A stretch of DNA of 12,455 nt from a virus, in UHGV virus genome UHGV-0098743; one strand, 5' to 3'. Below the pieces are notes generated by a model. The model was not told the origin of the DNA, ran no database searches, and was given only the letters and a program-made list of their open reading frames with translations. Positions 1 through 12,455 of the stretch are shown piece by piece. Made by a program: the position numbers and the translations under genes. Each line of letters opens with the position of its first letter. Positions within the stretch are counted from its first letter, which is position 1.

Positions 1-28
1 TGTGAACTGGTCGTTCTGACCATCAACG

Positions 29-52
29 AAAAAGCCCACATCTGTGGGCTTT
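29..52 (-). terminator. Putative Rho-independent terminator in the flank beyond the ssrA-derived att core
   Basis: Inverted repeat gcccaca/tgtgggc (34-40 and 43-49) flanked by an A-run (29-33) and TTT (50-52); on the minus strand this reads as a stem-loop followed by TTTTT. Could act in both directions. Confidence 0.4.
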
Positions 53-61
53 CATGTTACC

Positions 62-77
62 AGGAGCCGCGGCTCCT
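62..77. repeat. Perfect 16-bp palindrome AGGAGCCG|CGGCTCCT
   Basis: Read directly; the two halves are exact reverse complements and are followed by TTT. Function unknown (hairpin or protein-binding site). Confidence 0.3.
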
Positions 78-179
78 TTGCGTATCCTTTTATGTCTCCT
101 CACCGTCTGGTCGGTGTTTTGCTGAGACTTCTAACTTCCTGTTTTTGTTGGTGTTGTCCTTACACCGTCCAATCATGAT

Positions 180-223
180 TGGTGGGCTGGCGGGAGTTGA
201 ACCCGCGTCCGAAATTCCTACAT
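180..223 (-). other. ssrA: tmRNA (ssrA) 3'-terminal fragment: prophage attachment-site core
   Basis: The reverse complement reads ATGTAGGAATTTCGGACGCGGGTTCAACTCCCGCCAGCCCACCA, matching the 3' end of E. coli tmRNA as I recall it (ending CGGGUUCAACUCCCGCCAGCUCCACCA) apart from a one-base difference near the CCA end. Only about 44 nt are present; a full 363-nt ssrA would overlap the integrase ORF, so this is a partial att-core copy. Confidence 0.7.
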
Positions 224-317
224 ACCATTTTTAGCCTAATAAAAACATACATTTACTTTTAAAATCATCACGTTATTGTTTTTTGTATTTGTCGGGTTTT
301 ATGTGATTTTAAGTCTG

Positions 318-337
318 TGCCGCCAAAGTGCCGCCAT
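318..337. repeat. Tandem direct repeat GTGCCGCCA x2 (11-bp period) between the integrase stop and the att core; candidate Int arm-type site
   Basis: GTGCCGCCA at 318-326 and 329-337, read directly; the position in the att arm next to the int 3' end. Function is inferred. Confidence 0.25.
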
Positions 338-340
338 AAA

Positions 341-1366
341 TTAACGGTTCCAGTTGAGATTGTGAAGCGGGTTTTTTGTCACTGCATCTTCCAGGTGGTC
401 GGGTGCGAAGTGGGCGTAAATCATTGTCATTTTAATATCGGCGTGGCCCAGAATATCGCGCAGTACCAGTATATTTCCGCCGTTCATCATAAAATGACTG
501 GCGAAAGTATGGCGCAGAACGTGGGTGCATTGGCCCTCTGGCAAGTCAATGCTTGCCCGCTTGACTGCACGCTCAAAGGCTTTTCTGCATGGCGTGAATA
601 ACTTCCCTCGGTTCTTTGGTAACTCGTCATACAGCGCCTGAGATATAGGAACCGTTCGGTTTTTCTTGCCCTTTGTTTTGGTGTAGGTGATTCGGTATTT
701 AGATAACTGATGGCCCTGCAGGTTTTCGGCTTCACTCCAGCGGGCGCCGGTAGCTAAGCAGATTTTTGCAATCATGAGCAGGCTGGGGTTTTCTGAATCA
801 GCGCAGGCATCCAGCAGGCGTTTAATTTCTTCCGGCGCCAGGAACGCCAGTTCCCCCTCTGCGATTTTAAATGTTGGAAGCCCGGCGAGTGGGTTGGGGG
901 CTGACCAGTGGCCCAGCTTTTTCAGCGTGCCAAAAACTGATGATAGGTTGCGTTGTTCAAGGTTTACCGTGCGGGGCTTAACTGGCGACATAGGCAAGCC
1001 ATCTTCATTTTTGACTTCACCTTTTAGGCGTGCTTCACGGTATTTTGTAAAGTCACCGGCAGTCAGCTCCGAGGCAATGGGATCACCCAGGCCATTACAA
1101 ATAATGTTAAGTTTTGCCATCAGGCGCTTGGGGTCAGCAAGAGTCTGTCCGTAAAGTGAATGCCACTGCTTAATTACTTCTGACAATTGGCGCCGATCAT
1201 CCTTTTCGCCTAGCCATGGCTTTTTGTTCACTTCATCCATTGTGAAGTTTTCGAATGCTATGGCCTCGCCTTTCGTCGCAAATTGCTTGCGCACGCGCTT
1301 GCCATCGCGCCCGCTAGGGTAGCACTCACACAACCATTTCCCGTTTGGCTGTTTTCTGATGGTCAT
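341..1366 (-). CDS. int: Tyrosine recombinase / phage integrase (P2 Int-like), 341 aa
   Basis: Full-length ORF; the C-terminal catalytic region has HVLRHTFASHF and LGHADIKMTMIYAHF (R-H-R-Y signature of tyrosine recombinases). Lies next to the ssrA-derived att core and is transcribed toward it, as in P2/186-type prophages. ATG at 1366..1364. Confidence 0.93.
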   Translation of the reverse strand: MTIRKQPNGKWLCECYPSGRDGKRVRKQFATKGEAIAFENFTMDEVNKKPWLGEKDDRRQLSEVIKQWHSLYGQTLADPKRLMAKLNIICNGLGDPIASELTAGDFTKYREARLKGEVKNEDGLPMSPVKPRTVNLEQRNLSSVFGTLKKLGHWSAPNPLAGLPTFKIAEGELAFLAPEEIKRLLDACADSENPSLLMIAKICLATGARWSEAENLQGHQLSKYRITYTKTKGKKNRTVPISQALYDELPKNRGKLFTPCRKAFERAVKRASIDLPEGQCTHVLRHTFASHFMMNGGNILVLRDILGHADIKMTMIYAHFAPDHLEDAVTKNPLHNLNWNR

Positions 1367-1367
1367 A

Positions 1368-2000
1368 TCAAAGGCTCTTAATAACTTTTAAGACGTGGCC
1401 TACAACCTCGATATCATCCAGGCTGCACTCAAAAGATGATTCATCTTGATGAACTACCAATCTGTTTCCGGGGATACGGGTTAACTTCACAATACTTTTT
1501 ATTCCATCAATATCGACCAACCACACCCCATTTACTGGTGGTGTTTGGCTGCGATCCACTAGGTATGAATCACCACCGGTATTTACTAAGAGTAAGTTAC
1601 TGGAATTGGAAGGAAGCAAGCTGCTGTCAATGATTGCTTTACCTGTATCCACCAAAGAGCCGCTAGAAAGTGTCACTTTGTCAATTTCGGGAGAAACAAG
1701 GTCAGAAAGGTGTTTAACTTTGCCGGAGTTCACGAAATTGATATCTTTTTGCATGTCAATGTTTGAACCCGGCTCGCCTTGCCCTGTGGTAAGCCAGAGT
1801 AAAGAAACGCCTGTCTCAAGAGCGCACTGAATTACCCATTCTGCAGGGAAACTATCTCTTAAGTATCTGTTTGCCATGGTGCTTTTAGATGCGCCAAGAT
1901 GGTCGCACAATTGCTGTCTTGATTTGAAATCGTAGGCTGCCATTAGCCTATGGATGGCCTCTCTACCCCCGGTGTTCTCGCCTGTCTTTACTTGTATCAT
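1368..2000 (-). CDS. cI: CI-like immunity repressor (phage 186 CI type: N-terminal HTH, C-terminal S24-peptidase-like fold), 210 aa
   Basis: N-terminal segment QQLCDHLGASKSTMANRYL looks like an HTH. The C-terminal half has the topology of lambda CI/LexA C-domains (GGDSY, VKL, VVGHVLKV). Its stop lies 1 nt from the int start (cI-int operon) and it is divergent from the cox/cII operon. Whether the Ser/Lys dyad is catalytically competent cannot be judged by eye. Confidence 0.8.
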   Translation of the reverse strand: MIQVKTGENTGGREAIHRLMAAYDFKSRQQLCDHLGASKSTMANRYLRDSFPAEWVIQCALETGVSLLWLTTGQGEPGSNIDMQKDINFVNSGKVKHLSDLVSPEIDKVTLSSGSLVDTGKAIIDSSLLPSNSSNLLLVNTGGDSYLVDRSQTPPVNGVWLVDIDGIKSIVKLTRIPGNRLVVHQDESSFECSLDDIEVVGHVLKVIKSL

Positions 2001-2012
2001 TTTTTAATCCTA

Positions 2013-2041
2013 TTGACGTATCAAATATTGGATCGTAGTAT
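2013..2041 (+). promoter_or_regulatory. Candidate sigma70 early lytic promoter (pR/Pe-like) for the cox-cII operon
   Basis: TTGACG (2013-2018), 17-bp spacer, TAGTAT (2036-2041); about 80 bp upstream of the cox-like start and overlapping operator repeat R1. Confidence 0.45.
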
Positions 2042-2067
2042 CTTTTCGTATCAACTCTTGAATCGTA
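2017..2067. promoter_or_regulatory. Two 21-bp direct-repeat operator candidates (R1 2017-2037, R2 2047-2067) in the cI / cox intergenic switch region
   Basis: R1 CGTATCAAATATTGGATCGTA and R2 CGTATCAACTCTTGAATCGTA match at 18 of 21 positions, with centres 30 bp apart; each has internal partial dyad symmetry (TCAA...TTGA). R1 contains a GATC. A possible leftward promoter for cI (TTGATA -35 at 2054..2049, CAATAT -10 at 2030..2025 on the minus strand) overlaps them. Confidence 0.5.
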
Positions 2068-2119
2068 TAAAACAAGATAAAACGACGTAAACCAAACCTT
2101 AACCGAGAGATACTGCACT

Positions 2120-2368
2120 ATGAGCACTGATATTTCAATTCGTGTACCAAAAGTGATAGCGACGCCAGCCGAGTTTGCTAAGTGGGAAGGGTATTCCCGT
2201 GGTTCTGTTTATCAGATGATTCATAACGGTAAATTGGCTAACTACATTGAAAAGAAAGAAAAAAACAAAGGCCGCGTATTCATCCTTTACCTCAAGTACA
2301 AAAAAGACCAAGCAAGCAAAAACATGGACAAGTCTGCATTCAATTACAACGTTGTAGTTGGTTGTTAA
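2120..2368 (+). CDS. Cox/Apl-like excisionase and switch regulator, 82 aa
   Basis: First gene of the rightward operon, divergent from cI. The segment PAEFAKWEGYSRGSVYQMIHNGKL resembles the HTH region of P2 Cox (EFAKLIGKSTGAVRRMIDKGKL). RBS GAGAG upstream. Confidence 0.7.
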   Translation: MSTDISIRVPKVIATPAEFAKWEGYSRGSVYQMIHNGKLANYIEKKEKNKGRVFILYLKYKKDQASKNMDKSAFNYNVVVGC

Positions 2369-2400
2369 GTTCAATTATGTGAACTTTTGAGGTATGAAAC

Positions 2401-2910
2401 ATGTTTGATTATAAGATTTCCAAACATCCGCATTTTGATGAAGCCTGCCGGGCTTTCTCGCTGCGTCACAACATGGCGAAGCTGGCAGAACGCGCAGGAA
2501 TGAATGTCCAGACGCTGCGCAACAAGCTGAACCCGGAGCAACCGCATCAACTTACCCCGCCGGAGATCTGGCTGCTGACTGATATCACAGAAGACTCAAC
2601 GCTGGTTGACGGTTTTCTGGCTCAAATCCATTGCCTGCCGTGCGTGCCATTGAATGAAGTGGCAAAAGAGAAGCTGCCGCATTACGTCATGAGCGCTACT
2701 GCTGAAATCGGACGTGTTGCTGCCGGTGCCGTATCGGGTGATGTGAAAACCACCGCAGGCCGCCGCGATGTTATCAGCAGCATTAACTCTGTTACTCGTC
2801 TGATGGCACTGGCTGCCGTTTCGATGCAGGCGCGTTTACAGGCTAACCCGGCGATGGCAAGCGCGGTGGATACCGTGACGGGCCTCGGCGCTTCGTTTGG
2901 TCTGATCTGA
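2401..2910 (+). CDS. cII: Phage 186 CII-like transcriptional activator (CP76 family), 169 aa
   Basis: Same length as 186 CII (169 aa) and same position (second gene after apl/cox). N-terminal HTH-like segment NMAKLAERAGMNVQTLRNKLNP. Strong RBS GAGGT 7 nt upstream. Confidence 0.75.
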   Translation: MFDYKISKHPHFDEACRAFSLRHNMAKLAERAGMNVQTLRNKLNPEQPHQLTPPEIWLLTDITEDSTLVDGFLAQIHCLPCVPLNEVAKEKLPHYVMSATAEIGRVAAGAVSGDVKTTAGRRDVISSINSVTRLMALAAVSMQARLQANPAMASAVDTVTGLGASFGLI

Positions 2911-2917
2911 GGTGGTT

Positions 2918-3118
2918 ATGCTGACTAAAGAACCCTCTTTTGCGTCACTTCTCATAAAGCAAAGCCCGGCAATGCACTACGGTCACGGCTGGATCATGGG
3001 GAAGGATGGCAAACGCTGGCACCCGTGCCGCTCTCAGGATGAACTGCTGGCTGACCTGTCCACAACCAAACAGGGGAAATCATGGCTATTGAAGGCGCTG
3101 CAGCGACTGTCCCATTAA
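2918..3118 (+). CDS. Hypothetical small early protein, 66 aa (alternative GTG start at 2912)
   Basis: ORF in the early operon directly after cII; GGTGG just upstream of the ATG. Sits where 186 has the fil/dhr host-takeover genes, but I see no recognisable motif. Confidence 0.45.
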   Translation: MLTKEPSFASLLIKQSPAMHYGHGWIMGKDGKRWHPCRSQDELLADLSTTKQGKSWLLKALQRLSH

Positions 3119-3423
3119 GCCCCGGTAAAAGGCTGGACGCATTGAATCATATTGCGGAATTGAGAGCTAAAGTGTTTGGCCTAAATATTGAGCCGGAGCT
3201 TGAAAGGTTTATTAAAGATATGCGCGATCCACGCGACGTAAATAATAAACAGAATGAGCGGGCACTGGCAGCCATTTTTTATATGGCAAAAATTCCGGCA
3301 GAACGTCACGGCGTCAATATTAGTGATCTGACTACTGACGAAAAGCGGGAACTGGTGAAAGCAATGAATCATTTTCGTGCAGTGGTGAGCTTATTTCCCA
3401 AACGGCTAACCATGCCGAATTAA
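3082..3423 (+). CDS. Hypothetical early protein, 113 aa
   Basis: ORF with RBS AGGGGA; overlaps the upstream ORF by 37 nt; no recognisable motif. Confidence 0.5.
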   Translation: MAIEGAAATVPLSPGKRLDALNHIAELRAKVFGLNIEPELERFIKDMRDPRDVNNKQNERALAAIFYMAKIPAERHGVNISDLTTDEKRELVKAMNHFRAVVSLFPKRLTMPN

Positions 3424-3490
3424 TCCACAACAGAAATTAATGGCGTAAACCCGCCGGGCTTCTTATTGCCCAAATTCAGGAGAAACAACT

Positions 3491-3724
3491 ATGCGAAATA
3501 TTGAAACCCGTACCACTAAAACCGGACCAGATGATGCTGGTCTCAACCTGTTGCTGACTGAGGCACGCAAAGAAGAACGCCGGGGACGCGCAGATGTGAT
3601 GGCTGCGCGTCTGGATTCTTTAGCTGCTCGTATCGTGTCACGTCAGCTTAACCACACGGAAGCGGCTGAGCTGCTGCGTCAGGAAGCTGTGAAGATTCAG
3701 AACGAAGCGCAGGAGATCCACTGA
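3491..3724 (+). CDS. Hypothetical early protein, 77 aa, probably helical
   Basis: Good RBS CAGGAGAAA; its stop overlaps the next start (TGATG). Confidence 0.55.
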   Translation: MRNIETRTTKTGPDDAGLNLLLTEARKEERRGRADVMAARLDSLAARIVSRQLNHTEAAELLRQEAVKIQNEAQEIH

Positions 3725-3951
3725 TGGCTGATTCAATGGACCTTGTACAGCAGCGCGTTGAAGAAGAACGCCCGCGCCATATCCACACCGCCCGCAATAA
3801 AACGCCGGGCGTTTCCCGTGTTCTCTGCATTGATTGCGATGCGCCGATCCCGCCAGCTCGCCGCCGCGCCATTCCGGGCGTGCAGTGCTGCGTCACTTGT
3901 CAGGAAATCGCAGAGCTGAAAGGCAAACACTACAACGGGGGTGCTGTATGA
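3724..3951 (+). CDS. TraR/DksA-family C4 zinc-finger protein (P2 orf82-like), 75 aa
   Basis: CIDC-x17-CCVTC gives the C-x2-C...C-x2-C spacing typical of phage TraR/DksA zinc fingers; it is translationally coupled to neighbours on both sides. Confidence 0.75.
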   Translation: MADSMDLVQQRVEEERPRHIHTARNKTPGVSRVLCIDCDAPIPPARRRAIPGVQCCVTCQEIAELKGKHYNGGAV

Positions 3952-4808
3952 GCACTATTCTGAAATGGGCGGGAAATAAAACCTCCATCATGCCGGAACT
4001 GATTAAGCATCTTCCTGCTGGCACGCGACTGGTTGAACCTTTCGCGGGTTCATGCGCTGTAATGATGGCGACAGACTATCCTCATTATCTTGTCGCGGAT
4101 ATTAACCCAGACCTGATAAATCTTTTTAAGCATATTGCATTTGACTGCGAGAAATTTATTTCAAATTCAAAAGGATTCTTTTCAGGCACAAATAGCGCTG
4201 AGTCTTATTACAACATCCGTCAGGATTTTAATCATTCGGCTGAAACCACCGATTTCTGGAAAGCTGTATTTTTCCTTTATCTTAATCGCCATGGTTATCG
4301 TGGGTTGTGCCGCTATAATTTGAGCGGTCATTTTAATGTCCCTTACGGTAATTATAAAAATCCGTATTTTCCTGAAAGTGAAATACGCGCTTTTGCAGAA
4401 AAGGCTCAACGCGCAACGTTTATCTGTGCCAGCTATGACGAAACACTGGCGCTGCTGCAGGCTGGTGATGTTGTTTATTGTGATCCGCCATACGATGGCA
4501 CATTTAGCGGTTATCACACTGCCGGTTTTACAGAAGACGATCAGTATCATCTGGCGTCTATTCTTGAGCGCCGGTCATCAGAAGGTCATCCGGTTATCGT
4601 GTCCAACAGCGACACGTCCCTGACCCGTTCGCTTTATCGTAATTTTACCCGCCATCGCATCACTGCAAAGCGCAGCATGGGTGTGGCTGCCGGCGAGAGT
4701 AAATCTGCAGCAGAAATCATCGCCACAAAATCAGCTGGCTGGTTTGGTGTCGATTTGGCGTCCGGTCCAGATATCTCGGTGGAAACTGAGGTGCGGGCGT
4801 GGCAGTGA
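3948..4808 (+). CDS. dam: DNA adenine methyltransferase (Dam-like, N6-adenine, D12 class), 287 aa
   Basis: N-terminus [38 protein letters not shown] parallels E. coli Dam (LKWAGGK...LVEPFVGAGSV); catalytic motif [15 protein letters not shown] (DPPY). ATG at 3948 overlaps the upstream stop (ATGA). The six-frame ORF starting at 3834 is an in-frame upstream extension and is unlikely to be the true start. Confidence 0.9.
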
Positions 4809-6238
4809 GTAAATTCACATTACATAATGCACCAACCACCGGCGGCTCGAATGAGGCCGCCGTGGCCTTTTCATGGAATAACCCCAAAAAAGCGGTTAAC
4901 CCATATCTGGACCCGGCGGAAGTTGCGCCGGGGTCTGCGCTTTCAAACCTGATTGCTCTTTACGCTGCGGATAACGAGCAGGAGCAGCTGCGCCGTGAGG
5001 CGCTGAGCGATGAGGTCTGGGAACGCTATTTCTTCAATGAATCCCGTGATCCTGTCCAGCGCGAAATGGAGCAGGACCGGCTGATTAGTCGTGCCAAAAT
5101 GGCGCGCGAGCAGCAGCGTTTTAATCCCGATCTGGTCATTCTGGCTGACGTTAACGCCATGCCGTCCCATATCAGCAAGCCTCTGCTGGAGCGGATTAAA
5201 TATTTCCATAGCCTGGGCAGAGCAAAAGCCTATTCCCGCTACCTGCGCGAAACAATTAGGCCCTGTCTTGAGCGGCTGGAGCGCGTGCGTGACAGTCAGG
5301 TGTCTGCCTCTTTCCGGTTCATGGCAAGTCATGACGGGCTGGAGGGGCTGCTGGTACTGCCTGAAATGAATCAGGATCAGGTCAAGCGTCTTTCCACGCT
5401 GGTTGCGGCTCATATGAGCATGTGTCTTGATGCGGCCTGCGGTGATCTGTTTGTCAGCGACGATGTTAAACCAGAAGAAATCCGCCAGGCATGGGAAAGG
5501 GTTGCAGCAGAGGCGATGCGCCTTGAGATCATCCCGCCTGCGTTTGAGCAGTTACGCCGCAAAAAGCGTCGACGCAAGCCGGTGCCCTATGAACTGATCC
5601 CACCGTCGCTGGCGCGGATGCTGTGCGCGGACTGGTGGTATCGCAAATTGTGGCAGATGCGCTGCGAGTGGCGGGAGGAACAGCTGCGTGCTGTCTGCCT
5701 GGTCAACAAAAAAGCGTCCCCGTATGTCAGCTATGAAGCCGTGATCCACAAGCGCGAGCAGCGCCGCAAATCGCTGGAGTTCTTCCGCTCACATGAGCTG
5801 GTCAACGAAGACGGTGACACGCTGGACATGGAAGACGTGGTGGCGTATGTCCGCAACAACCCGGATAAGCTGCACCTTTTCGTTGATAACGGCTCACTGG
5901 TGGCAACCGGTGCCAGCTCTATGTCATGGGAATACCGCTACACCCTGAACGTTGTGATCGAGGATTTCAGCGGCGACCAGAATCTGCTGATGGCTCCCGT
6001 GTTGCTGTGGCTCAGCGAAAATCAGGCGGACGCCATCAACAACCCGGAGCTGCGCGAAAAACTGTTCACCTTTGAAGTGGATATTCTGCGCAATGATGTG
6101 TGCGATATCAGCCTGAATCTGCAACTGACGGAGCGTGTACTGGTCAGCACTGACGGCGGTATCTCAACGGTTGAGGCGGAGCCAGAACCCGACGAGCCAG
6201 AAGAAATGTGGACGGTGAAACGTGGAAAATCTGCATAA
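4799..6238 (+). CDS. Hypothetical protein, 479 aa, in the position where P2/186 carry replication gene A; function unknown
   Basis: Long ORF with host-like codon usage, GTG start overlapping the dam stop. I could not find a Walker A, HUH or other catalytic motif. Contains the basic stretch [17 protein letters not shown] and an acidic C-terminal tail [11 protein letters not shown]. Its stop overlaps the S-like gene by 17 nt. Confidence 0.7.
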
Positions 6239-6668
6239 AGTGGATGAGTGGCTGACAGCGCTGCTGGCGAATCTGGAGCCGGCTGCGCGTCAGCACATGA
6301 TGTGTGAACTGGCGCAGCAGCTGCGTCGAAATCAGCAGAACAACATCCGCCTGCAGCGCAACCCCGACGGAACCGGCTACGAGCCGCGCCGGGTAACAGC
6401 CCGCAGCAAAAAGGGGCGCATCAAACGCCAGATGTTTGCAAAACTTCGCACCACCAAATACCTGAAAGCTGCAGCGAGCGCGAACTCTGCGAGCGTGCAG
6501 TTTGTGGGACAAGTGCAGCGTATCGCTCGGGTACACCATTACGGCTTACGTGATCGTGTTAGCCGCAATGGACCATTAGTAATTTATAGAGAACGAAGGT
6601 TACTTGGATTCAATGAGAATAATGATTGCATTAAAAATATATTAATTATGTCTTTATTTAATACATAA
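6222..6668 (+). CDS. S: Phage virion morphogenesis / tail-completion protein (P2 gpS / Mu gpG family), 148 aa; C-terminus possibly altered by the downstream insertion
   Basis: Pattern [28 protein letters not shown] ... [20 protein letters not shown] resembles the gpS/gpG family as I remember it. The last ~20 codons ([18 protein letters not shown]) lie in abruptly AT-rich DNA. Confidence 0.55.
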
Positions 6669-6680
6669 TGTATCGTGGTA

Positions 6681-6718
6681 AAAAATAGTAAAGCCAAATG
6701 GCTGGCTAATTGCCAGCC
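6681..6718 (-). terminator. Putative Rho-independent terminator downstream of the ariB-like gene
   Basis: Stem GGCTGGC (6700-6706), loop TAATT, stem GCCAGCC (6712-6718); on the minus strand it is followed by the U-rich tract AUUUGGCUUUACUAUUUUU. Confidence 0.5.
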
Positions 6719-6724
6719 GTAACT

Positions 6725-7582
6725 CTATGAAATTAGTGATATTTTTTGATTGTAGTAATCATAATCCGCATGTTCTTCAGTAAAGAATAATTCAAAAGCC
6801 GTTAGCATATTTGAATAAAAACTATCTTTTGATATTGCAGTTTTTCTCTCATTTTTAGCTAAGTAATTGGTTATGAATCTTAATGATGCTGAGAATAGAA
6901 AGTGCCCCTTTATCCAATGCGTTATGCAAGTGTTGGCAGGAAATTGAATGTTGTTTTTTTCTGCTAACCCTACATTTCTGAAATCATCAGGAAGGGTTTG
7001 AATATAAGCATTTATCTTATCTTGACATGTTTTGTAAGAGTTTTTTGATTGCATAAATCTATCGCATGAATCACCTACTACGGAATAGCCACGCTGATTT
7101 AAATGATTGTAAATATCTAAGGCAATTAGGTCTTCAATATTGTTATAAAACTCTAATAGCCAGGAGTTTATATTTATTCCTTGGATTTCTTTGGCACTGT
7201 ATCTTCCCATGTGTTTTAACACACGGGATAGGACTTTCTCATCGACTATAGTATTTTCAATTGAGTAACCTTTTGTATAGATGATGTTTGTATGATTTAC
7301 TAAGTTGGATGAAAAATGATTCAGATCTGCATCGCGGGCAACAATTGCGTTTATTTGTCCTGATGTGATTCGCTCAATATAAGGTTCTAATGCTTCACAC
7401 CCTCCAACTTCTTGCACTTCAACACTTAGTCGACCATTTTTTTTGAAAACTATTTCCCAAAATCCAATATCATCCTCACCTTCAACATATACCATGATAT
7501 CAGCATCATAAAACATGCTGATAACATTTTCCGCCTCGTCAGACCAATTAAAGTTATCTGTTCGAATCTCATTATTGGACAT
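6725..7582 (-). CDS. ariB: DUF4435/TOPRIM-like (OLD-family nuclease-like) protein, AriB-like effector candidate of a PARIS-type defence pair, 285 aa from ATG 7582 (alternative GTG start at 7612)
   Basis: N-terminal motif MVYVEGEDD followed by AIVARDAD, i.e. the acidic E...DxD arrangement of TOPRIM/OLD nuclease domains. AT-rich codon usage. Its start overlaps the upstream ATPase gene stop by 11 nt (ATGTCCAATAA). Domain identity is from memory of family motifs, not a search. Confidence 0.75.
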   Translation of the reverse strand: MSNNEIRTDNFNWSDEAENVISMFYDADIMVYVEGEDDIGFWEIVFKKNGRLSVEVQEVGGCEALEPYIERITSGQINAIVARDADLNHFSSNLVNHTNIIYTKGYSIENTIVDEKVLSRVLKHMGRYSAKEIQGININSWLLEFYNNIEDLIALDIYNHLNQRGYSVVGDSCDRFMQSKNSYKTCQDKINAYIQTLPDDFRNVGLAEKNNIQFPANTCITHWIKGHFLFSASLRFITNYLAKNERKTAISKDSFYSNMLTAFELFFTEEHADYDYYNQKISLIS

Positions 7583-8825
7583 TGACAAGTTTCTCCATGT
7601 TAAAAATTGCACTCCTGTATTTTGAAGCTACTTCTGGAGAATGTGTGGCAGCTATTACTTGTGCATTGGGATTGAGTTTTTTGATTGCTGGGATAATGTT
7701 TCTTTGCCATTGAATATGTAGGGAGAGTTCAGGCTCATCTGTTAGGAAAATATATTGTTTTTCTCTTTGTAATAGGGTTTCTATGAATAAAATAAGTAAT
7801 TGCTTCTCACCTGAAGATAAATTTTCCTGAATTATTGGTCCGTAAGTATTCTTTATGGAAAGTATTCCGCCTTGAAAGTCAAATTCCTTATCAGTAATAA
7901 ATTCTTTTAAAATACTTAAAAATTGTTCAATGGGAGCGAAAACTAAAGATGTTTTTTCTTTAGATTTTAAAGACATTCTAATTATTTTTTGTGTCTTTCT
8001 TAGCGCTTCAATTGAGCGGATGTCAAAACCATCTTTTTTATTTTGTTTTAATTCTGCAATGGTGTGATCAATAGTGTCAACATGGAAATTTATTTTCCGA
8101 CGGACATTCATATCAATAGCGTTTAGTTGTGTGTACGCACTTAAAAGGTTTTGTTTTTCTTCCTCCTTGTTAAATTGAATGTTGTACGCCTTATCATCAA
8201 TATCATCTTTACTATATAGAATAGATGCTAAAACTTCTTTTTGAAGTTCTAATGCAATATCTCTCGCTCGTTGAGATAATTCAAGTTGATATTTTGTTAA
8301 TTCCTGCATTAATTCTGATAGTTTATAATCGACAGGGTTGATAAAGCGAGAGCCGTATTTGTCTCTAACCTCAAAGTCGTCACTATTCCTTAGTCTATAG
8401 ACGGATAAAGATGAGAGTGAAACCAGTTTTGCTAATTCTGCTCTTAACTCCTCAGTCTCTTCTTGTGCTCTGCGTCTATAACTGAGGGAGATTCTTCTGT
8501 CATCGGCGTTGAATAGTCGGATGGTATGTTTTTTTGATGAAAGTTGATACTCTATTTTAGAGAACGGTGATGCATCACTCTCGATTTTCTTAATTTTTAT
8601 TGTCTTAGTTTTCTTTTTGTCCTTTAGTTTTATTTCGGCACTATTGAAATCATTGTTGTTAATGCCATCAAGGTCAATTGATAAAATTGAATGCAAAATA
8701 TTCATAAAAGTTGTTTTGCCGGTTCCATTCCTTCCAATGATGATGTTTACATCATCATTAAAAGAGCAAAGAGCATTTAATCTTTGCCAAAAACCATTGA
8801 TAGCGATGCTTTGTATTTTATACAT
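7572..8825 (-). CDS. ariA: ABC-type ATPase (AAA_15/AAA_21, OLD/SMC-like), AriA-like sensor candidate of a PARIS-type defence pair, 417 aa from ATG 8825 (TTG at 8828 possible)
   Basis: Walker A GRNGTGKTT near the N-terminus; a long insert domain; C-terminal ABC signature-like SSGEKQLL, Walker B IFLTDEPELSLH and H-loop ATHSPEV. Strong RBS AAGGAG 7 nt before the ATG. AT-rich. Confidence 0.82.
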   Translation of the reverse strand: MYKIQSIAINGFWQRLNALCSFNDDVNIIIGRNGTGKTTFMNILHSILSIDLDGINNNDFNSAEIKLKDKKKTKTIKIKKIESDASPFSKIEYQLSSKKHTIRLFNADDRRISLSYRRRAQEETEELRAELAKLVSLSSLSVYRLRNSDDFEVRDKYGSRFINPVDYKLSELMQELTKYQLELSQRARDIALELQKEVLASILYSKDDIDDKAYNIQFNKEEEKQNLLSAYTQLNAIDMNVRRKINFHVDTIDHTIAELKQNKKDGFDIRSIEALRKTQKIIRMSLKSKEKTSLVFAPIEQFLSILKEFITDKEFDFQGGILSIKNTYGPIIQENLSSGEKQLLILFIETLLQREKQYIFLTDEPELSLHIQWQRNIIPAIKKLNPNAQVIAATHSPEVASKYRSAIFNMEKLVNVQ

Positions 8826-8868
8826 CAACTTACTCCTTGTTTTGGTTGAGTCGAACTTATCAACTGTT

Positions 8869-8886
8869 TGTACCAGCTATAACACA
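8869..8886 (+). promoter_or_regulatory. TGT-N12-ACA dyad upstream of V: possible Ogr/Delta-type late-activator site (P_V-like)
   Basis: TGT (8869-8871), 12 nt, ACA (8884-8886), read directly. P2 late promoters carry this dyad near -55. Here the dyad centre is only about 56 bp from the V start codon, so the spacing is tight and this may be coincidence. Confidence 0.3.
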
Positions 8887-8915
8887 ATTATGCTGGTTCG
8901 TACGAATCATTTCAA
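8886..8915 (-). promoter_or_regulatory. Candidate sigma70 promoter for the ariA-ariB operon
   Basis: On the minus strand: TTGAAA (8915..8910), 18-bp spacer, ATAATT (8891..8886); predicted leader about 55 nt to the ariA ATG. Confidence 0.35.
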
Positions 8916-8933
8916 ATGTTCAATATAGGCAGT

Positions 8934-9512
8934 ATGAACACACAACTTACCGAAATCATGCGCCTTATCACCAATCTGATCCGTACCGGCACTGTGACCG
9001 AAGTGGACCGGAAAAAGTGGCTGTGTCGGGTGAAAGTGGGCGAGCTTGAAACTAACTGGATTAACTGGCTGACGCTGCGCGCCGGTGGTGCCCGTACATG
9101 GTGGTGTCCGTCGCCGGATGAGCAGGTGGTGTTGCTGAGCATGGGCGGCAATCTGGAAACCGCTTTTGTGCTGCCCGCTATCTACTCCAATCAGTTTCCG
9201 CCACCGTCGGATTCCGTGGACGGCTGCGTGACGGAGTACCCGGACGGGGGATGGTTTGAGTATGAACCCGCCACCGGACGGTGGCATGTCAGGGGCATCA
9301 AATCCATGGTGATCGAGGCATCAGACAGTGTCACCTACAAAACCGGTGAGTTTGTGGTGGAGGCTGACACCACGCGCATTAACAGCGAGGTGGTGATCAA
9401 TGGCGGCGTCACCCAGGGCGGCGGCGCAATGAGTTCTAACGGGATCGTAGTTGATGACCATGAGCATACTGGCGTTCTGAAAGGCGGCGACAACACGGGG
9501 GGACCGGTATGA
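8934..9512 (+). CDS. V: Baseplate assembly protein V (P2 gpV-like spike), 192 aa (ORF opens at 8916; 8934 is the homologous start)
   Basis: N-terminus MNTQLTEIMRLITNLIRTGTVTEVD parallels P2 gpV (MNTLANIQELARALRNMIRTG...); conserved WLTLRAGGARTWWCPS and C-terminal HEHTG. Stop overlaps the W start (ATGA). Confidence 0.85.
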   Translation: MNTQLTEIMRLITNLIRTGTVTEVDRKKWLCRVKVGELETNWINWLTLRAGGARTWWCPSPDEQVVLLSMGGNLETAFVLPAIYSNQFPPPSDSVDGCVTEYPDGGWFEYEPATGRWHVRGIKSMVIEASDSVTYKTGEFVVEADTTRINSEVVINGGVTQGGGAMSSNGIVVDDHEHTGVLKGGDNTGGPV

Positions 9513-9868
9513 CGTTGTATATCGGTATGAGCAGGAATGACGGGCAGACCATTGCAGATACAGACCATCTGCGCCAGTCGGTGCGGGATATTCTGCTGAC
9601 GCCGCAGGGCAGTCGTCTTGCGCGTCGGGAATATGGTTCCCTGCTGTCTGCCCTGATAGACCAGCCGCAGACCCCGGCGCTGCGCCTGCAGATTATGTCT
9701 GCGGTCTATGTGGCGCTGAACCGTTGGGAGCCGCGCCTTACGCTGGACTCCATCACCATCAACGGCAATTTTGATGGCTCTATGGTGGTTGAACTTACCG
9801 GACACGGCAATAACGGCGCACCGGTTTCCCTTTCCGTATCAACAGGAGCAGACAATGGCAGTCATTGA
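9509..9868 (+). CDS. W: Baseplate assembly protein W (P2 gpW / GP25-like), 119 aa
   Basis: Size and position between V and J; gpW-like N-terminal region (DLRQSVRDILLTPQGSRLARREYGS). Confidence 0.85.
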   Translation: MTLYIGMSRNDGQTIADTDHLRQSVRDILLTPQGSRLARREYGSLLSALIDQPQTPALRLQIMSAVYVALNRWEPRLTLDSITINGNFDGSMVVELTGHGNNGAPVSLSVSTGADNGSH

Positions 9869-10763
9869 CCTTTCCCGGCTACCGCCGCCGCAGATTGTGG
9901 ATGTGCCGGACTTTGAGGCATTGCTGGCAGAACGCAAGGCCGCCTTTGTGGCCCTCCATCCGGCTGATGAACAGGAGGCTGTTATGCGCACGTTAGCGCT
10001 GGAGTCAGAACCTGTCACCAAACTGCTGCAGGAAAATACTTACCGCGAAATCCTGCTGCGTCAGCGAATTAATGAGGCTGCGCAGGCGGTCATGGTGGCC
10101 TATTCCATGGGAAATGACCTTGAACAACTGGCAGGTAACTGCAACGTGAAGCGCCTGACGGTAGTCCCTGCAGATAATGACTCGGTGCCGCCGGTCGCCG
10201 CAGTGATGGAAAGTGATGAAGCATTACGCCAGCGCATTCCTGCAGCATTTGAGGGGCTGTCCGTTGCAGGGCCGACGGGAGCCTATGAGTTCCACGCCAG
10301 AAGTGCCGACGGGCGGGTGGCTGATGCCAGCGCAACCAGTCCGGCACCGGCAGAGGTGGTGCTTACCGTGCTGAGCCGTGAGGGGGACGGTACGGCAGGG
10401 GCTGACCTGCTGGCGGTGGTTGAGCAGGCGCTTAACAGTGAAAAAGTTCGCCCGGTGGCAGACCGCCTGACGGTGCGCAGCGCAGAAATTATTCCGTACA
10501 GCGTGGACGCAACGATCTTCCTTTATCCGGGGCCGGAGGCTGAGCCGGTGATGGCAGAAGCAAAAGCCAGTCTGCAGAAATACATCGCCAGTCAGACGCG
10601 GCTGGGACGTGATATCCGCCGCAGCGCCATTTATGCCGCGTTGCATGTGGAGGGCGTCCAGCGTGTGGAGCTGGCGTCCCCGCAGGGTGATGTGGTGCTG
10701 GATAAGACGCAGGCGGCATCCTGTACTGAATGGAGCATCATCAACGGGGGCACGGATGAATAG
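9855..10763 (+). CDS. J: Baseplate assembly protein J (P2 gpJ-like), 302 aa
   Basis: Starting at ATG 9855 (RBS AGGAG at 9844-9848) gives 302 aa, the same as P2 gpJ; conserved order V-W-J-I-H. The longer ORF from 9771 is an in-frame extension overlapping W. Confidence 0.88.
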   Translation: MAVIDLSRLPPPQIVDVPDFEALLAERKAAFVALHPADEQEAVMRTLALESEPVTKLLQENTYREILLRQRINEAAQAVMVAYSMGNDLEQLAGNCNVKRLTVVPADNDSVPPVAAVMESDEALRQRIPAAFEGLSVAGPTGAYEFHARSADGRVADASATSPAPAEVVLTVLSREGDGTAGADLLAVVEQALNSEKVRPVADRLTVRSAEIIPYSVDATIFLYPGPEAEPVMAEAKASLQKYIASQTRLGRDIRRSAIYAALHVEGVQRVELASPQGDVVLDKTQAASCTEWSIINGGTDE

Positions 10764-11361
10764 CCTGTTGCCGCCGGGTTCGTCGCCGCTTGAGCGCCGA
10801 CTGGCGCAGACCTGCAGCGGGATTTCCGATCTGCAGGTATCGCTGCGTGATTTGTGGAATCCGTCAATCTGCCCGGTCAGATTCCTGCCTTATCTGGCCT
10901 GGGCGTTTTCTGTTGACCGCTGGGATGAGAGCTGGACAGAAAGCGTCAAGCGCCGCGTTGTGCAGGACGCTTTTTATATCCATCAGCACAAGGGGACAAC
11001 CAGCGCCGTGCGGCGCGTGGTGGAGCCGTTCGGCTTTCTGATCCGCATCATTGAGTGGTGGCAGACTGGCGAAATACCAGGGACGTTCCGTCTGGATATT
11101 GGCGTGCAGGACCAGGGCATAACAGAAGAAACCTATCTGGAGCTGGAGCGCCTGATCGGTGACGCCAAACCGTGCAGCCGTCACCTGGTTGGTATGTCCA
11201 TCAACCTGCAGACAGGTGGCCCGTATTTTGTGGGCGCAGCCACCTACACCGGCGAAGAAATCACGATCTACCCGTATATCAACGAAACCATTATTTCCGG
11301 CGGCACCGCTTATGAGGGCGGGGCGGTCCATGTTATTGACACGATGAGAGTGAACCCATGA
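10756..11361 (+). CDS. I: Baseplate/tail protein I (P2 gpI-like), 201 aa
   Basis: Position between J and H; ATG at 10756 overlaps the J stop; the longer ORF from 10609 is an out-of-context extension. Confidence 0.82.
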   Translation: MNSLLPPGSSPLERRLAQTCSGISDLQVSLRDLWNPSICPVRFLPYLAWAFSVDRWDESWTESVKRRVVQDAFYIHQHKGTTSAVRRVVEPFGFLIRIIEWWQTGEIPGTFRLDIGVQDQGITEETYLELERLIGDAKPCSRHLVGMSINLQTGGPYFVGAATYTGEEITIYPYINETIISGGTAYEGGAVHVIDTMRVNP

Positions 11362-12455
11362 GCGCAAAATTTTACACCCTGCTGACGGATATCGGCGCGG
11401 CGAAACTGGTAAGCGCCGCCGCGCTCGGTGTCCCACTAAAAATTACCCATATGGCGGTGGGCAGCGGTGGTGGTATGCTGCCCACACCCAACGCGCAACA
11501 GACCGCGTTAGTGGCTGAGGAACGCCGCGCAGCGCTGAATATGCTGTATATCGACCCACAGAACAGCAGCCAGATTATTGCTGAGCAGGTGATCCCGGAA
11601 AATGAGGGCGGGTGGTGGATTCGTGAAGTCGGCCTGTTTGATGAAACAGGTGCGCTAATTGCTGTGGGAAACTGCCCGGAGAGCTACAAGCCGAAGCTGG
11701 CGGAGGGCAGCGGACGCACGCAGACCGTGCGAATGGTACTGATTACCAGCAGCACGGATAACATCACCCTGAAAATTGACCCCGCTGTGGTTCTGGCAAC
11801 CCGCAAATATGTGGATGATAAGGTGCTGGAACTTAAGGTGTATGTGGATGACCTGATGGCAAAGCATCTTGCTGCGGTTGATCCTCATTCGCAATATGCA
11901 CCAAAAGACAGTCCGACTCTGACAGGCATGCCTAAAACGCCAACGCCACCGGCAGGAAACAACAGCACCCTGATTGCCAGTACAGCCTTTGTACAGGCCG
12001 CTATTCTTGCCATGATAGGTGGCGCACCGGCAACGCTGGATACGCTGAAAGAAATTGCGGCAGCTATCAATAATGACCCGAATTTCAGTACCACCATTAA
12101 CAATGCGCTGGCACTGAAAGCACCACTGGCAAGCCCAGCCCTGACCGGAACGCCAACGGCTCCGACTGCGGCGCAGACTGTGAACAATACGCAGATTGCC
12201 ACTACAGCATTTGTGAAGGCAGCTATTGCCGGGCTGGTTGGTTCATCGCCGGAGGCGCTGGACACACTGAATGAACTGGCAGCTGCGCTGGGGAATGATC
12301 CTAACTTTGCGACAACAGTGATGAACGCGCTGGCGGGGAAACAGCCCCTCGATGCCACTTTGACTAACCTCAGCGGGAAAAGTGTTTCAGCCCTTCTACA
12401 ATACCTTGGTTTGGGAGAAGCGGCAACGAGGAACGTCGGAACGGATACCGGGCAA
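11358..12455 (+). CDS. H: Tail fibre protein H (P2 gpH-like), 5' part only; the ORF runs off the end of the window
   Basis: N-terminus MSAKFYTLLTDIGAAKLVSAA...MAVGSGGGMLP...ESYKPKLAEGSGRTQTVRMV...YVDDKV closely parallels the conserved P2 gpH N-terminal domain. No stop through 12455 (366 codons). Absent from the ORF track only because it is open-ended. Confidence 0.88.
   Translation, partial: MSAKFYTLLTDIGAAKLVSAAALGVPLKITHMAVGSGGGMLPTPNAQQTALVAEERRAALNMLYIDPQNSSQIIAEQVIPENEGGWWIREVGLFDETGALIAVGNCPESYKPKLAEGSGRTQTVRMVLITSSTDNITLKIDPAVVLATRKYVDDKVLELKVYVDDLMAKHLAAVDPHSQYAPKDSPTLTGMPKTPTPPAGNNSTLIASTAFVQAAILAMIGGAPATLDTLKEIAAAINNDPNFSTTINNALALKAPLASPALTGTPTAPTAAQTVNNTQIATTAFVKAAIAGLVGSSPEALDTLNELAAALGNDPNFATTVMNALAGKQPLDATLTNLSGKSVSALLQYLGLGEAATRNVGTDTGQ
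11910..12353 (+). repeat. Tandem duplicated ~74-codon tail-fibre repeat module inside H
   Basis: Units starting SPTLTGMPKTPTPP... (11910) and SPALTGTPTAPTAA... (12132) align over 74 aa with about half the residues identical, including TAFV.AAI, LDTL.E.AAA, NDPNF.TT and NALA.K. Confidence 0.7.

Follow-up and report, generated by a model that had tools for sequence, protein, structure and literature searches.

The window, by which we mean the whole 12,455-nucleotide stretch of UHGV virus genome UHGV-0098743 that was analysed, carries two overlapping minus-strand genes inside a P2-like tail gene cluster, as a sequence-only reading of the same DNA had described. Both genes lie within a low-GC island between two tail genes identified by RefSeq, in agreement with that reading's placement of a moron between S and V. 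The locus is laid out as follows.

6222 to 6668, plus strand: tail-completion/virion morphogenesis gene S, the left flank (RefSeq; alignment with S of five related phages)
6575 to 8933, no strand: variable island, in which low-GC DNA replaces the S/V junction, including the last ~25 to 30 codons of S
6725 to 7582, minus strand: ariB-like DUF4435/TOPRIM nuclease gene, 285 amino acids, ATG start (ORF and RefSeq WP_001744203)
7572 to 8825, minus strand: ariA-like ABC (Rad50/SMC-type) ATPase gene, 417 amino acids, ATG start (ORF and RefSeq WP_001744202)
8934 to 9512, plus strand: baseplate assembly gene V, the right flank (RefSeq)

The ATPase gene comes first and overlaps its partner by 11 nt, and RefSeq gives identical gene models at E. 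coli loci that are 99.9% identical. The cassette has a GC content of ~33% against ~57% around it; in a GC profile, the ~2.36-kb island containing both genes runs at 29 to 36% and its flanks at 55 to 63%. The motifs picked out earlier (GRNGTGKTT, SSGEKQ, IFLTDEPE, and ATHSP in the ATPase; VYVEGEDD and ARDAD in the partner) are all found in the respective translations. The ATPase has an intact Walker A (GRNGTGK37TT), signature (LSSGEKQ), Walker B (IFLTD363E364PE), and H-loop (ATH395SP), and 28 homologues show no variation at K37, LSSGEKQ 336-342, D363/E364, or H395. In AriA of the PARIS system from E. coli B185, K39 and E393 are essential (PMC11464382). In the partner, five acidic residues (E34, D38, D84, D86, and E109) do not vary across 31 homologues. 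By sequence comparison, they follow the same order, with similar spacing, as the two-metal TOPRIM set of B185 AriB (E26, D30, D88, E90, and E122; PMC11464382).

The island also contains predicted signals for expression of the pair, which are listed here in the order in which the minus strand is read.

8887 to 8915, minus strand: predicted sigma-70-like promoter of the cassette, with -35 TTGAAA, a 17-nt spacer, and -10 CATAAT (10/12 in a consensus scan)
8833 to 8838, minus strand: Shine-Dalgarno AAGGAG, 7 nt upstream of the ariA ATG, read from the sequence
6690 to 6718, minus strand: intrinsic-terminator-like hairpin (GGCTGGC-AATTA-GCCAGCC) with a T-rich tail (terminator scan)

The hairpin, of 7 pairs (6 of them GC), begins 6 nt past the ariB stop. 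In an allele of the cassette that is 77% identical (L003), the promoter hexamers and their spacing are kept and the spacer sequence differs. Strong purifying selection acts on both genes: dN/dS is 0.04 to 0.08 for ariB, and ariA shows dN of 0.09 to 0.12 with dS saturated.

The element carrying the cassette had been described as lacking capsid and replication genes. A two-block BLAST alignment bears this out for the capsid and for most replication functions: window positions 1 to 5842 and 5839 to 12426 correspond to 2661 to 8503 and 19240 to 25827 of an intact prophage (L001), relative to which 10.7 kb are deleted. The breakpoint can be placed precisely.

5839 to 5842, no strand: deletion junction with 4-nt microhomology, creating an in-frame fusion of replication gene A' with tail gene 'R

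The resulting A'-'R fusion ORF (4799 to 6238) stops at the natural stop of R. The junction was found in 0 of 5,426 complete E. coli genomes, and the deletion is private to the window's prophage; the capsid/head and replication genes are therefore missing because of this private 10.7-kb event. Since the prophage is defective, the cassette might be thought an inactive relic in a dead element. We find this hardly credible: both ORFs are intact and 99.8 to 100% identical to the copies in nine intact prophages, the catalytic residues are all present, dN/dS is far below 1, and the predicted promoter, ribosome-binding site, and terminator are intact. The cassette has been kept in three independently degraded prophages (that of the window, L004, and L005), and its survival in virion-deficient prophages fits the general picture of remnants kept for their immunity genes.

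The family to which the pair belongs was assessed with the published PARIS detection rule (Rousset et al. 2022), which calls for adjacent genes encoding an ATPase that scores at least 32 bits against AAA_15 or at least 27 bits against AAA_21 and a partner that scores at least 27 bits against DUF4435 (thresholds from PMC9122126). In the Pfam search, the ATPase scored 76.8 bits against AAA_15 and 72.1 bits against AAA_21, and the partner scored 92.2 bits against DUF4435; these are the families that had been expected for the two proteins, and the rule is satisfied by the overlapping pair. Among PADLOC models, the best for the ATPase is AriA (1e-36), and those matched by the partner are AriB/AriAB only (AriB models at 9e-23 and, for PDLC04165, 1.5e-4). 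NCBIfam holds no specific model for the ATPase, its best match there being PtuA at 62.7 bits against a cutoff of 500. By sequence, the best PDB match of the ATPase is AriA (8ux9/8v45, 1.4e-17), with PtuA at ~4e-8. Foldseek comparison of its AlphaFold model (pLDDT 79.5) with the PDB gave 14 top matches that are all AriA chains (E 1.7e-18 to 7e-16, TM 0.54 to 0.66), the best of them at E~1e-18 and TM 0.62 to 0.66; the next family follows at 2.6e-13 and TM 0.45. The modeled ATPase accordingly has the AriA fold, a Rad50-like head with AriA-type coiled-coil insertions.

For the partner, a sequence search of solved structures returned no match even at E<=1, either with the single query or with a 31-sequence profile, and the fold was therefore used to test AriB membership. 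Against the PDB, the only Foldseek matches of the partner model (pLDDT 91.9) with E<1e-3 are AriB chains (8v46_D and 8ux9_A), with probability 1.0, TM 0.56 to 0.57, 313 to 318 aligned columns, and 12% identity; OLD TOPRIM regions come after these, covering the TOPRIM core only at TM 0.23 to 0.26. The predicted structure thus points to an AriB fold over the full length of the protein. Together, profiles and folds settle for PARIS a choice that had been left open between PARIS and another split-OLD variant: the best PADLOC models are AriA and AriB, and both folds best match solved AriA and AriB.

The low identity of the partner to AriB leaves room for a PARIS-architecture ABC-ATPase/TOPRIM pair whose effector differs from that of B185, for example by nicking or degrading DNA in the manner of OLD or Gabija or by cleaving another RNA class. 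Such an effector would sit well with the 12% identity, with the lack of a sequence-level match to solved AriB, and with the ranking of TOPRIM DNA nucleases of the OLD family as next best in structure. We nevertheless judge it unlikely, as the match over the full length (313 columns, TM 0.57) is to AriB and that to OLD is confined to the TOPRIM core; Pfam, moreover, places the partner in DUF4435 and not in Toprim_OLD or RloB, and co-evolution of AriA and AriB, with signal-transduction and effector parts in common, is reported for 11 clades.

Several related ATPase systems were considered and set aside. The earlier reading had named both PARIS and AbiL-type pairs as the architecture. The PARIS part of this stands, whereas AbiL is related but distinct, its partner not being DUF4435-like. 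[quoted passage not shown] Septu and retron-associated PtuA-PtuB share the AAA_15/21 type of ATPase, and PtuA supplies the second-best matches for the cassette ATPase. PtuA nonetheless scores far below AriA (structures at E 1e-13 or weaker and TM 0.35 to 0.45, compared with ~1e-18 and TM 0.62 to 0.66), and the Septu partner is an HNH nuclease, whereas that of the cassette matches only DUF4435/AriB and no HNH family at E<=0.01. P2 Old, a class 1 OLD protein, shares the catalytic logic of ABC ATPase plus TOPRIM and is likewise a moron of the P2 family, one that excludes other phages. It is, however, a single polypeptide with Toprim_OLD encoded in the tin/old hotspot beside cos, while the cassette encodes two proteins from separate ORFs with a DUF4435 AriB-type partner that lacks a Toprim_OLD Pfam match; the C-terminal regions of class 1 OLD proteins match the partner structure weakly and partially (TM 0.23 to 0.26). 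Gabija was rejected because the partner is not a helicase-associated protein.

The closest counterpart is PARIS from E. coli B185 (8UX9, 8V45-8V49), which lies in a P4-satellite hotspot. It likewise consists of two adjacent, co-oriented genes with the ATPase first, has the same pairing of an AAA_15/AAA_21 ABC ATPase with a DUF4435/TOPRIM protein, conserves the ATPase motifs and the five acidic residues, and is carried as a low-GC accessory cassette by a P2/P4-type mobile element. The two differ in size and location: B185 AriA has 464 residues compared with 417 here (47 fewer), and B185 AriB has ~305 compared with 285; the cassette sits in the S/V tail slot of a helper-type phage and not in the cos-proximal hotspot of P4 or P2. 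Because identity to B185 PARIS, the sole mechanistically studied system, is only ~20% for AriA and 12% for AriB, we place the cassette in a distant PARIS clade. Judged from its sequence, it appears to be a genuine and largely ordinary member of PARIS, which standard tools (PADLOC and the DefenseFinder rules) already suffice to label as such, leaving current understanding unchanged.

We consider it highly probable that the pair functions as an abortive-infection system of the PARIS type (class 4 OLD family) from this distant clade. It would be autonomously expressed as an antisense moron from the S/V (P2 orf30) slot, in a 186/Fels-2-like prophage integrated at ssrA of E. coli, and would work, by analogy, through B185-like AriB release and tRNA cleavage. 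If B185 PARIS is taken as a guide, AriA would form an ATP-dependent oligomeric scaffold in which AriB is held inactive until a trigger protein encoded by a phage binds to AriA. AriB, then set free, would dimerise and use its TOPRIM site (E34/D38/D84/D86/E109) to cut host tRNAs, whereupon translation would halt and the infection would abort. From the same analogy we infer the phenotype, the RNA that is cut, a 6:3 (AriA6:AriB3) complex, and a trigger that need not be Ocr. Trigger-binding residues of the PARIS pore are reportedly poorly conserved across clades, and neither the Ocr trigger nor the tRNA-Lys/Thr/Asn specificity can therefore be transferred to the cassette; it is uncertain that Ocr would serve as trigger for a clade with 12 to 20% identity to the Ocr-sensing system. 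As a well-delimited example of a distant clade, natively regulated to judge by its predicted signals, the cassette can be used to ask which parts of PARIS (trigger pore, tRNA choice) differ between clades.

The same two genes could be read as a toxin-antitoxin-like addiction module, with AriB as toxin and AriA as antitoxin, that mainly stabilises a prophage segment and has little to do with defence. PDB depositors do label AriA an "antitoxin," a 2026 review places PARIS among type II TA Abi systems, and the cassette persists in the three independently deleted prophages mentioned above. Those three cases are anecdotal, though, and selection for defence equally predicts retention in degraded prophages. 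As every experimentally tested PARIS system protects against phages, and as a deletion taking both overlapping genes together is not obviously counter-selected, we regard this reading as quite improbable.

The insertion site had been called unusual. This does not hold, since the S/V junction corresponds to the orf30 slot of P2, which is among three moron regions already documented, and related phages carry other cargo there or are empty. Similarity of the window to such phages ends at 6562 to 6595 and restarts at 8933/8934, V being 82 to 95% identical in nucleotides to the V of related phages and beginning exactly at its ATG; the C-terminal ~18 residues of S vary with each cargo. The slot is empty in MLG42, Fels-2, and SopEPhi and holds other cargo in SEN8, RE-2010, and Cartapus. 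In the phages examined, the cargo of this slot (P2 orf30, R18C ORF16, the SEN8 FRG-domain protein, RE-2010 gp27, and Cartapus gp14) is antisense like the cassette, has its breakpoint in the 3' end of S, and leaves a dyad before V in place. These are single genes, mostly of unknown function, whereas the cassette holds a PARIS system complete with both genes. Defence systems within tail genes had already been reported for P2-like prophages in a 2026 survey that covered 1,511 of them (PMC13586616). The P2 orf30 slot recurrently carries complete defence systems. As a separate observation, the SEN8 cargo matches the PADLOC candidate PDC-S15.

The dyad kept before V directly adjoins the -10 element of the cassette.

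8869 to 8886, no strand: TGT-N12-ACA dyad upstream of V

Its pattern is that of a P2 Ogr-type late-activator site, which we take to be its role here from P2 late promoters. The pattern occurs once between positions 6601 and 9000 of the window, and the dyad sits 55.5 to 56.5 nt from the V ATG in 6/6 variants of the S/V slot, amid DNA that cannot be aligned. The -35 and -10 elements of the cassette lie on the strand opposite V, between the dyad and the start of V. On a speculative and rather unlikely reading, the slot may be an under-described Peduoviridae defence hotspot whose late promoter P_V incorporates the promoter of the cargo; with a trigger and tRNA specificity unlike those of B185, this slot-specific clade would then be a PARIS variant with its expression wired to the life cycle of the carrier phage. 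Under such coupling, activator-driven late transcription in the lytic cycle would occlude the PARIS promoter, and a quiescent lysogen would express the system constitutively.

A near-identity search of deposited phage genomes returned no copy of the cassette, which is known solely from prophages in bacterial genomes. Of 5,426 complete E. coli genomes, 31 have the S/V slot filled, in the same orientation, by three diverged alleles of its clade. That the island was strictly co-inherited with the phage backbone is doubtful, as its synonymous divergence (dS >2, saturated) is greater than the 0.6 to 1.2 of the tail genes on either side.

The insert between tail-completion gene S and baseplate gene V is a two-gene cassette whose ariA-like and ariB-like open reading frames share an 11-nt overlap and, from this arrangement, are probably translationally coupled. 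Gene models were taken from the RefSeq annotation of copies 99.8 to 100% identical to the cassette in 9 complete E. coli genomes. These models and the open reading frames agree with a sequence-only reading of the same DNA, which had placed two minus-strand genes here; all the motifs it quoted occur in the translations of both genes, and its observation is confirmed. The GC content of the island is 29 to 36%, compared to 55 to 63% on either side, and its edges are sharp.

Features of the cassette, including expression signals of its own (window positions)
7572-8825, minus strand: AAA-family ATPase gene (ariA-like), 417 aa, ATG start (RefSeq annotation of near-identical copies)
6725-7582, minus strand: DUF4435 protein gene (ariB-like), 285 aa, ATG start (RefSeq annotation of near-identical copies)
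8915-8887, minus strand: sigma-70-like promoter, TTGAAA-17-CATAAT (consensus match)
7 nt upstream of the ariA-like ATG, minus strand: ribosome-binding site AAGGAG (from sequence)
6 nt past the ariB-like stop, minus strand: terminator-like GC-rich hairpin and T-rich tail (from sequence)

PARIS loci have been defined as adjacent genes scoring at least 32 bits for AAA_15 or at least 27 bits for AAA_21, together with at least 27 bits for DUF4435 (Rousset et al. 2022). The cassette pair falls within this definition. The ATPase scores 76.8 bits for AAA_15 and 72.1 bits for AAA_21, families that the sequence-only reading had predicted; its partner scores 92.2 bits for DUF4435, likewise predicted, and matches no other Pfam family. 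The best PADLOC models are AriA for the ATPase (1e-36) and AriB for the partner (9e-23; a second AriB model, PDLC04165, gives only 1.5e-4). Both proteins are already present in PHROG families of unknown function.

Compared by sequence with solved structures, the ATPase retrieves AriA first (8ux9 and 8v45, 1.4e-17), with PtuA at ∼4e-8. A fold search with its predicted model (pLDDT 79.5) returned AriA chains as all of the top 14 matches (E of ∼1e-18, TM up to 0.66, ∼20% identity), followed by retron and Septu PtuA (E of 1e-13 or weaker, TM up to 0.45). The partner matches no solved structure by sequence, whether searched singly or with a 31-sequence profile, and its membership was therefore tested by fold. 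Along its entire length, its predicted model (pLDDT 91.9) resembles two AriB chains, 8v46_D and 8ux9_A (probability 1.0, TM 0.56 to 0.57, 12% identity). No other fold match is significant, and OLD TOPRIM regions rank next. The choice between PARIS and a related split-OLD variant, previously left undecided, thus falls to PARIS: both defining components are present, and the cassette belongs to a clade far from the experimentally studied one. The literature describes 11 PARIS clades, in which AriA and AriB co-evolve and the trigger-binding pore residues are poorly conserved from clade to clade.

Invariant positions in the ATPase family are K37, LSSGEKQ, D363/E364, and H395. Those in the partner family (E34, D38, D84, D86, and E109) match in order and pattern the acidic residues of AriB from the E. 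coli B185 reference system (E26, D30, D88, E90, and E122) (Burman et al. 2024). By analogy with B185 PARIS, an AriA oligomer would sequester AriB until ATP-dependent binding of a phage protein to AriA freed it; free AriB would then dimerize and cleave tRNAs, arresting translation. An effector acting on a different nucleic-acid target is less likely. Within the PARIS reading, neither the Ocr trigger nor the tRNA-Lys/Thr/Asn specificity should be assumed for this clade. When the window was compared with a Salmonella enterica copy and with an allele from a different prophage lineage (77% identical), dN/dS of ariB was 0.04 to 0.08, and ariA has a dN of 0.09 to 0.12 with saturated synonymous sites. 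Both genes are thus under strong purifying selection, and an inactive relic is the less likely reading.

The S/V position, previously considered unusual, is not so; related phages carry varied cargo or none there. Defense systems among tail genes were also reported in a 2026 survey of 1,511 P2-like prophages (PMC13586616).

Contents of the S/V slot in closely related phages
Yersinia MLG42 (68-nt S-V spacer), Fels-2, and SopEPhi: empty
Salmonella phage SEN8: antisense FRG-domain gene, match to PADLOC candidate defense family PDC-S15 (gp17, L009 1087-2022, E of 3e-31)
RE-2010 (283 aa) and Cartapus (176 aa): one antisense gene each, function unknown, no match in Pfam or PADLOC

The RE-2010 and Cartapus cargos could be unrecognized defense genes. 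Across slot variants, similarity ends within the last ∼25 to 30 codons of S, and its return coincides precisely with the V start codon. In the S protein (3' end of the gene at 6575-6668), the first ∼130 residues are highly conserved and the final ∼18 vary by cargo, placing the recombination breakpoints inside S; the C-terminal tail seems to tolerate replacement. Upstream of V lies one further sequence pattern:

8869-8886: TGT-N12-ACA dyad

Its center falls 55.5 to 56.5 nt before the V ATG in 6/6 slot variants (the window, L003, L008, L009, L010, and L011), within otherwise unalignable DNA. The dyad has the pattern of the Ogr-type activator site of P2 late promoters, and the V late promoter therefore appears to be preserved. 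The dyad and V flank the −35 and −10 hexamers of the cassette, which are on the opposite strand and are both retained in the second allele, so that the two promoters may interfere. Demonstration of promoter nesting, a new trigger, or a new target would raise the significance of the cassette, which is otherwise an ordinary kind of element, correctly identified.

This PARIS clade is rare in E. coli, occurring in 31 of 5,426 complete genomes as three allele groups (about 100%, 76%, and 65% nucleotide identity); in all E. coli examples examined, the cassette occupies the S/V slot and its orientation is the same. The Salmonella copy (within CP022019.1, 1277736-1290593; 75 to 80% identical) instead has a non-phage, conjugative-element context, adjoining a MobA/MobL relaxase, TraD, PilS, and a shufflon, with an Mrr-type restriction gene nearby; the cassette therefore moves between kinds of mobile element. 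More distant relatives extend across Gammaproteobacteria and beyond. In the comparison of the window with the 77%-identical allele (L003) and the Salmonella copy (L007), dS between prophage lineages is >2 (saturated) for the PARIS genes and 0.6 to 1.2 for the flanking tail genes, an excess that suggests exchange at the slot and separate histories rather than simple co-descent with the backbone.

The carrier, which makes up the window, is a Peduoviridae prophage of the 186/Fels-2-like type at ssrA that encodes integrase, CI, CII, Fil, Dam, and replication gene A, and then R, S, V, W, J, I, and H. Positions 179-223 repeat 46 nt of the ssrA 3' end (97.8% identity to the ssrA sequence bordering the intact prophage at its far end) and form the attL/attR core of a prophage integrated there. 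Relative to that intact prophage, found in 9 complete E. coli genomes, the window lacks 10.7 kb (L001 8504-19239). Lost with this segment are two-thirds of A (its 3' part), the genes for portal, terminase, scaffold, capsid, and lysis, and 41 nt at the start of R. This deletion accounts for the missing capsid and replication genes noted earlier. Its junction (5839-5842) has 4 nt of microhomology, creates an in-frame A'::'R fusion (4799-6238; the first ∼348 codons of replication endonuclease A joined to tail gene R from about codon 15), and occurs in 0/5,426 complete E. coli genomes. The cassette is likewise intact in two other independently degraded P2-like prophages of E. coli, each with a 72%-identical AriB allele: L004 (GCA_019743635.1), which has lost V to U, and L005 (GCA_019757195.1), which has lost lysozyme to Q and W to T. 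These three cases, although anecdotal, fit selection for the module; an addiction role is less likely. The cassette adds a new, uncharacterized member to the PARIS family; the prophage carrying it is defective, and the P2 moron slot it occupies was already known. A second accessory-type function of the element is the DNA adenine methylase (MethyltransfD12 type) at 3948-4808, in the early operon directly upstream of and overlapping A.
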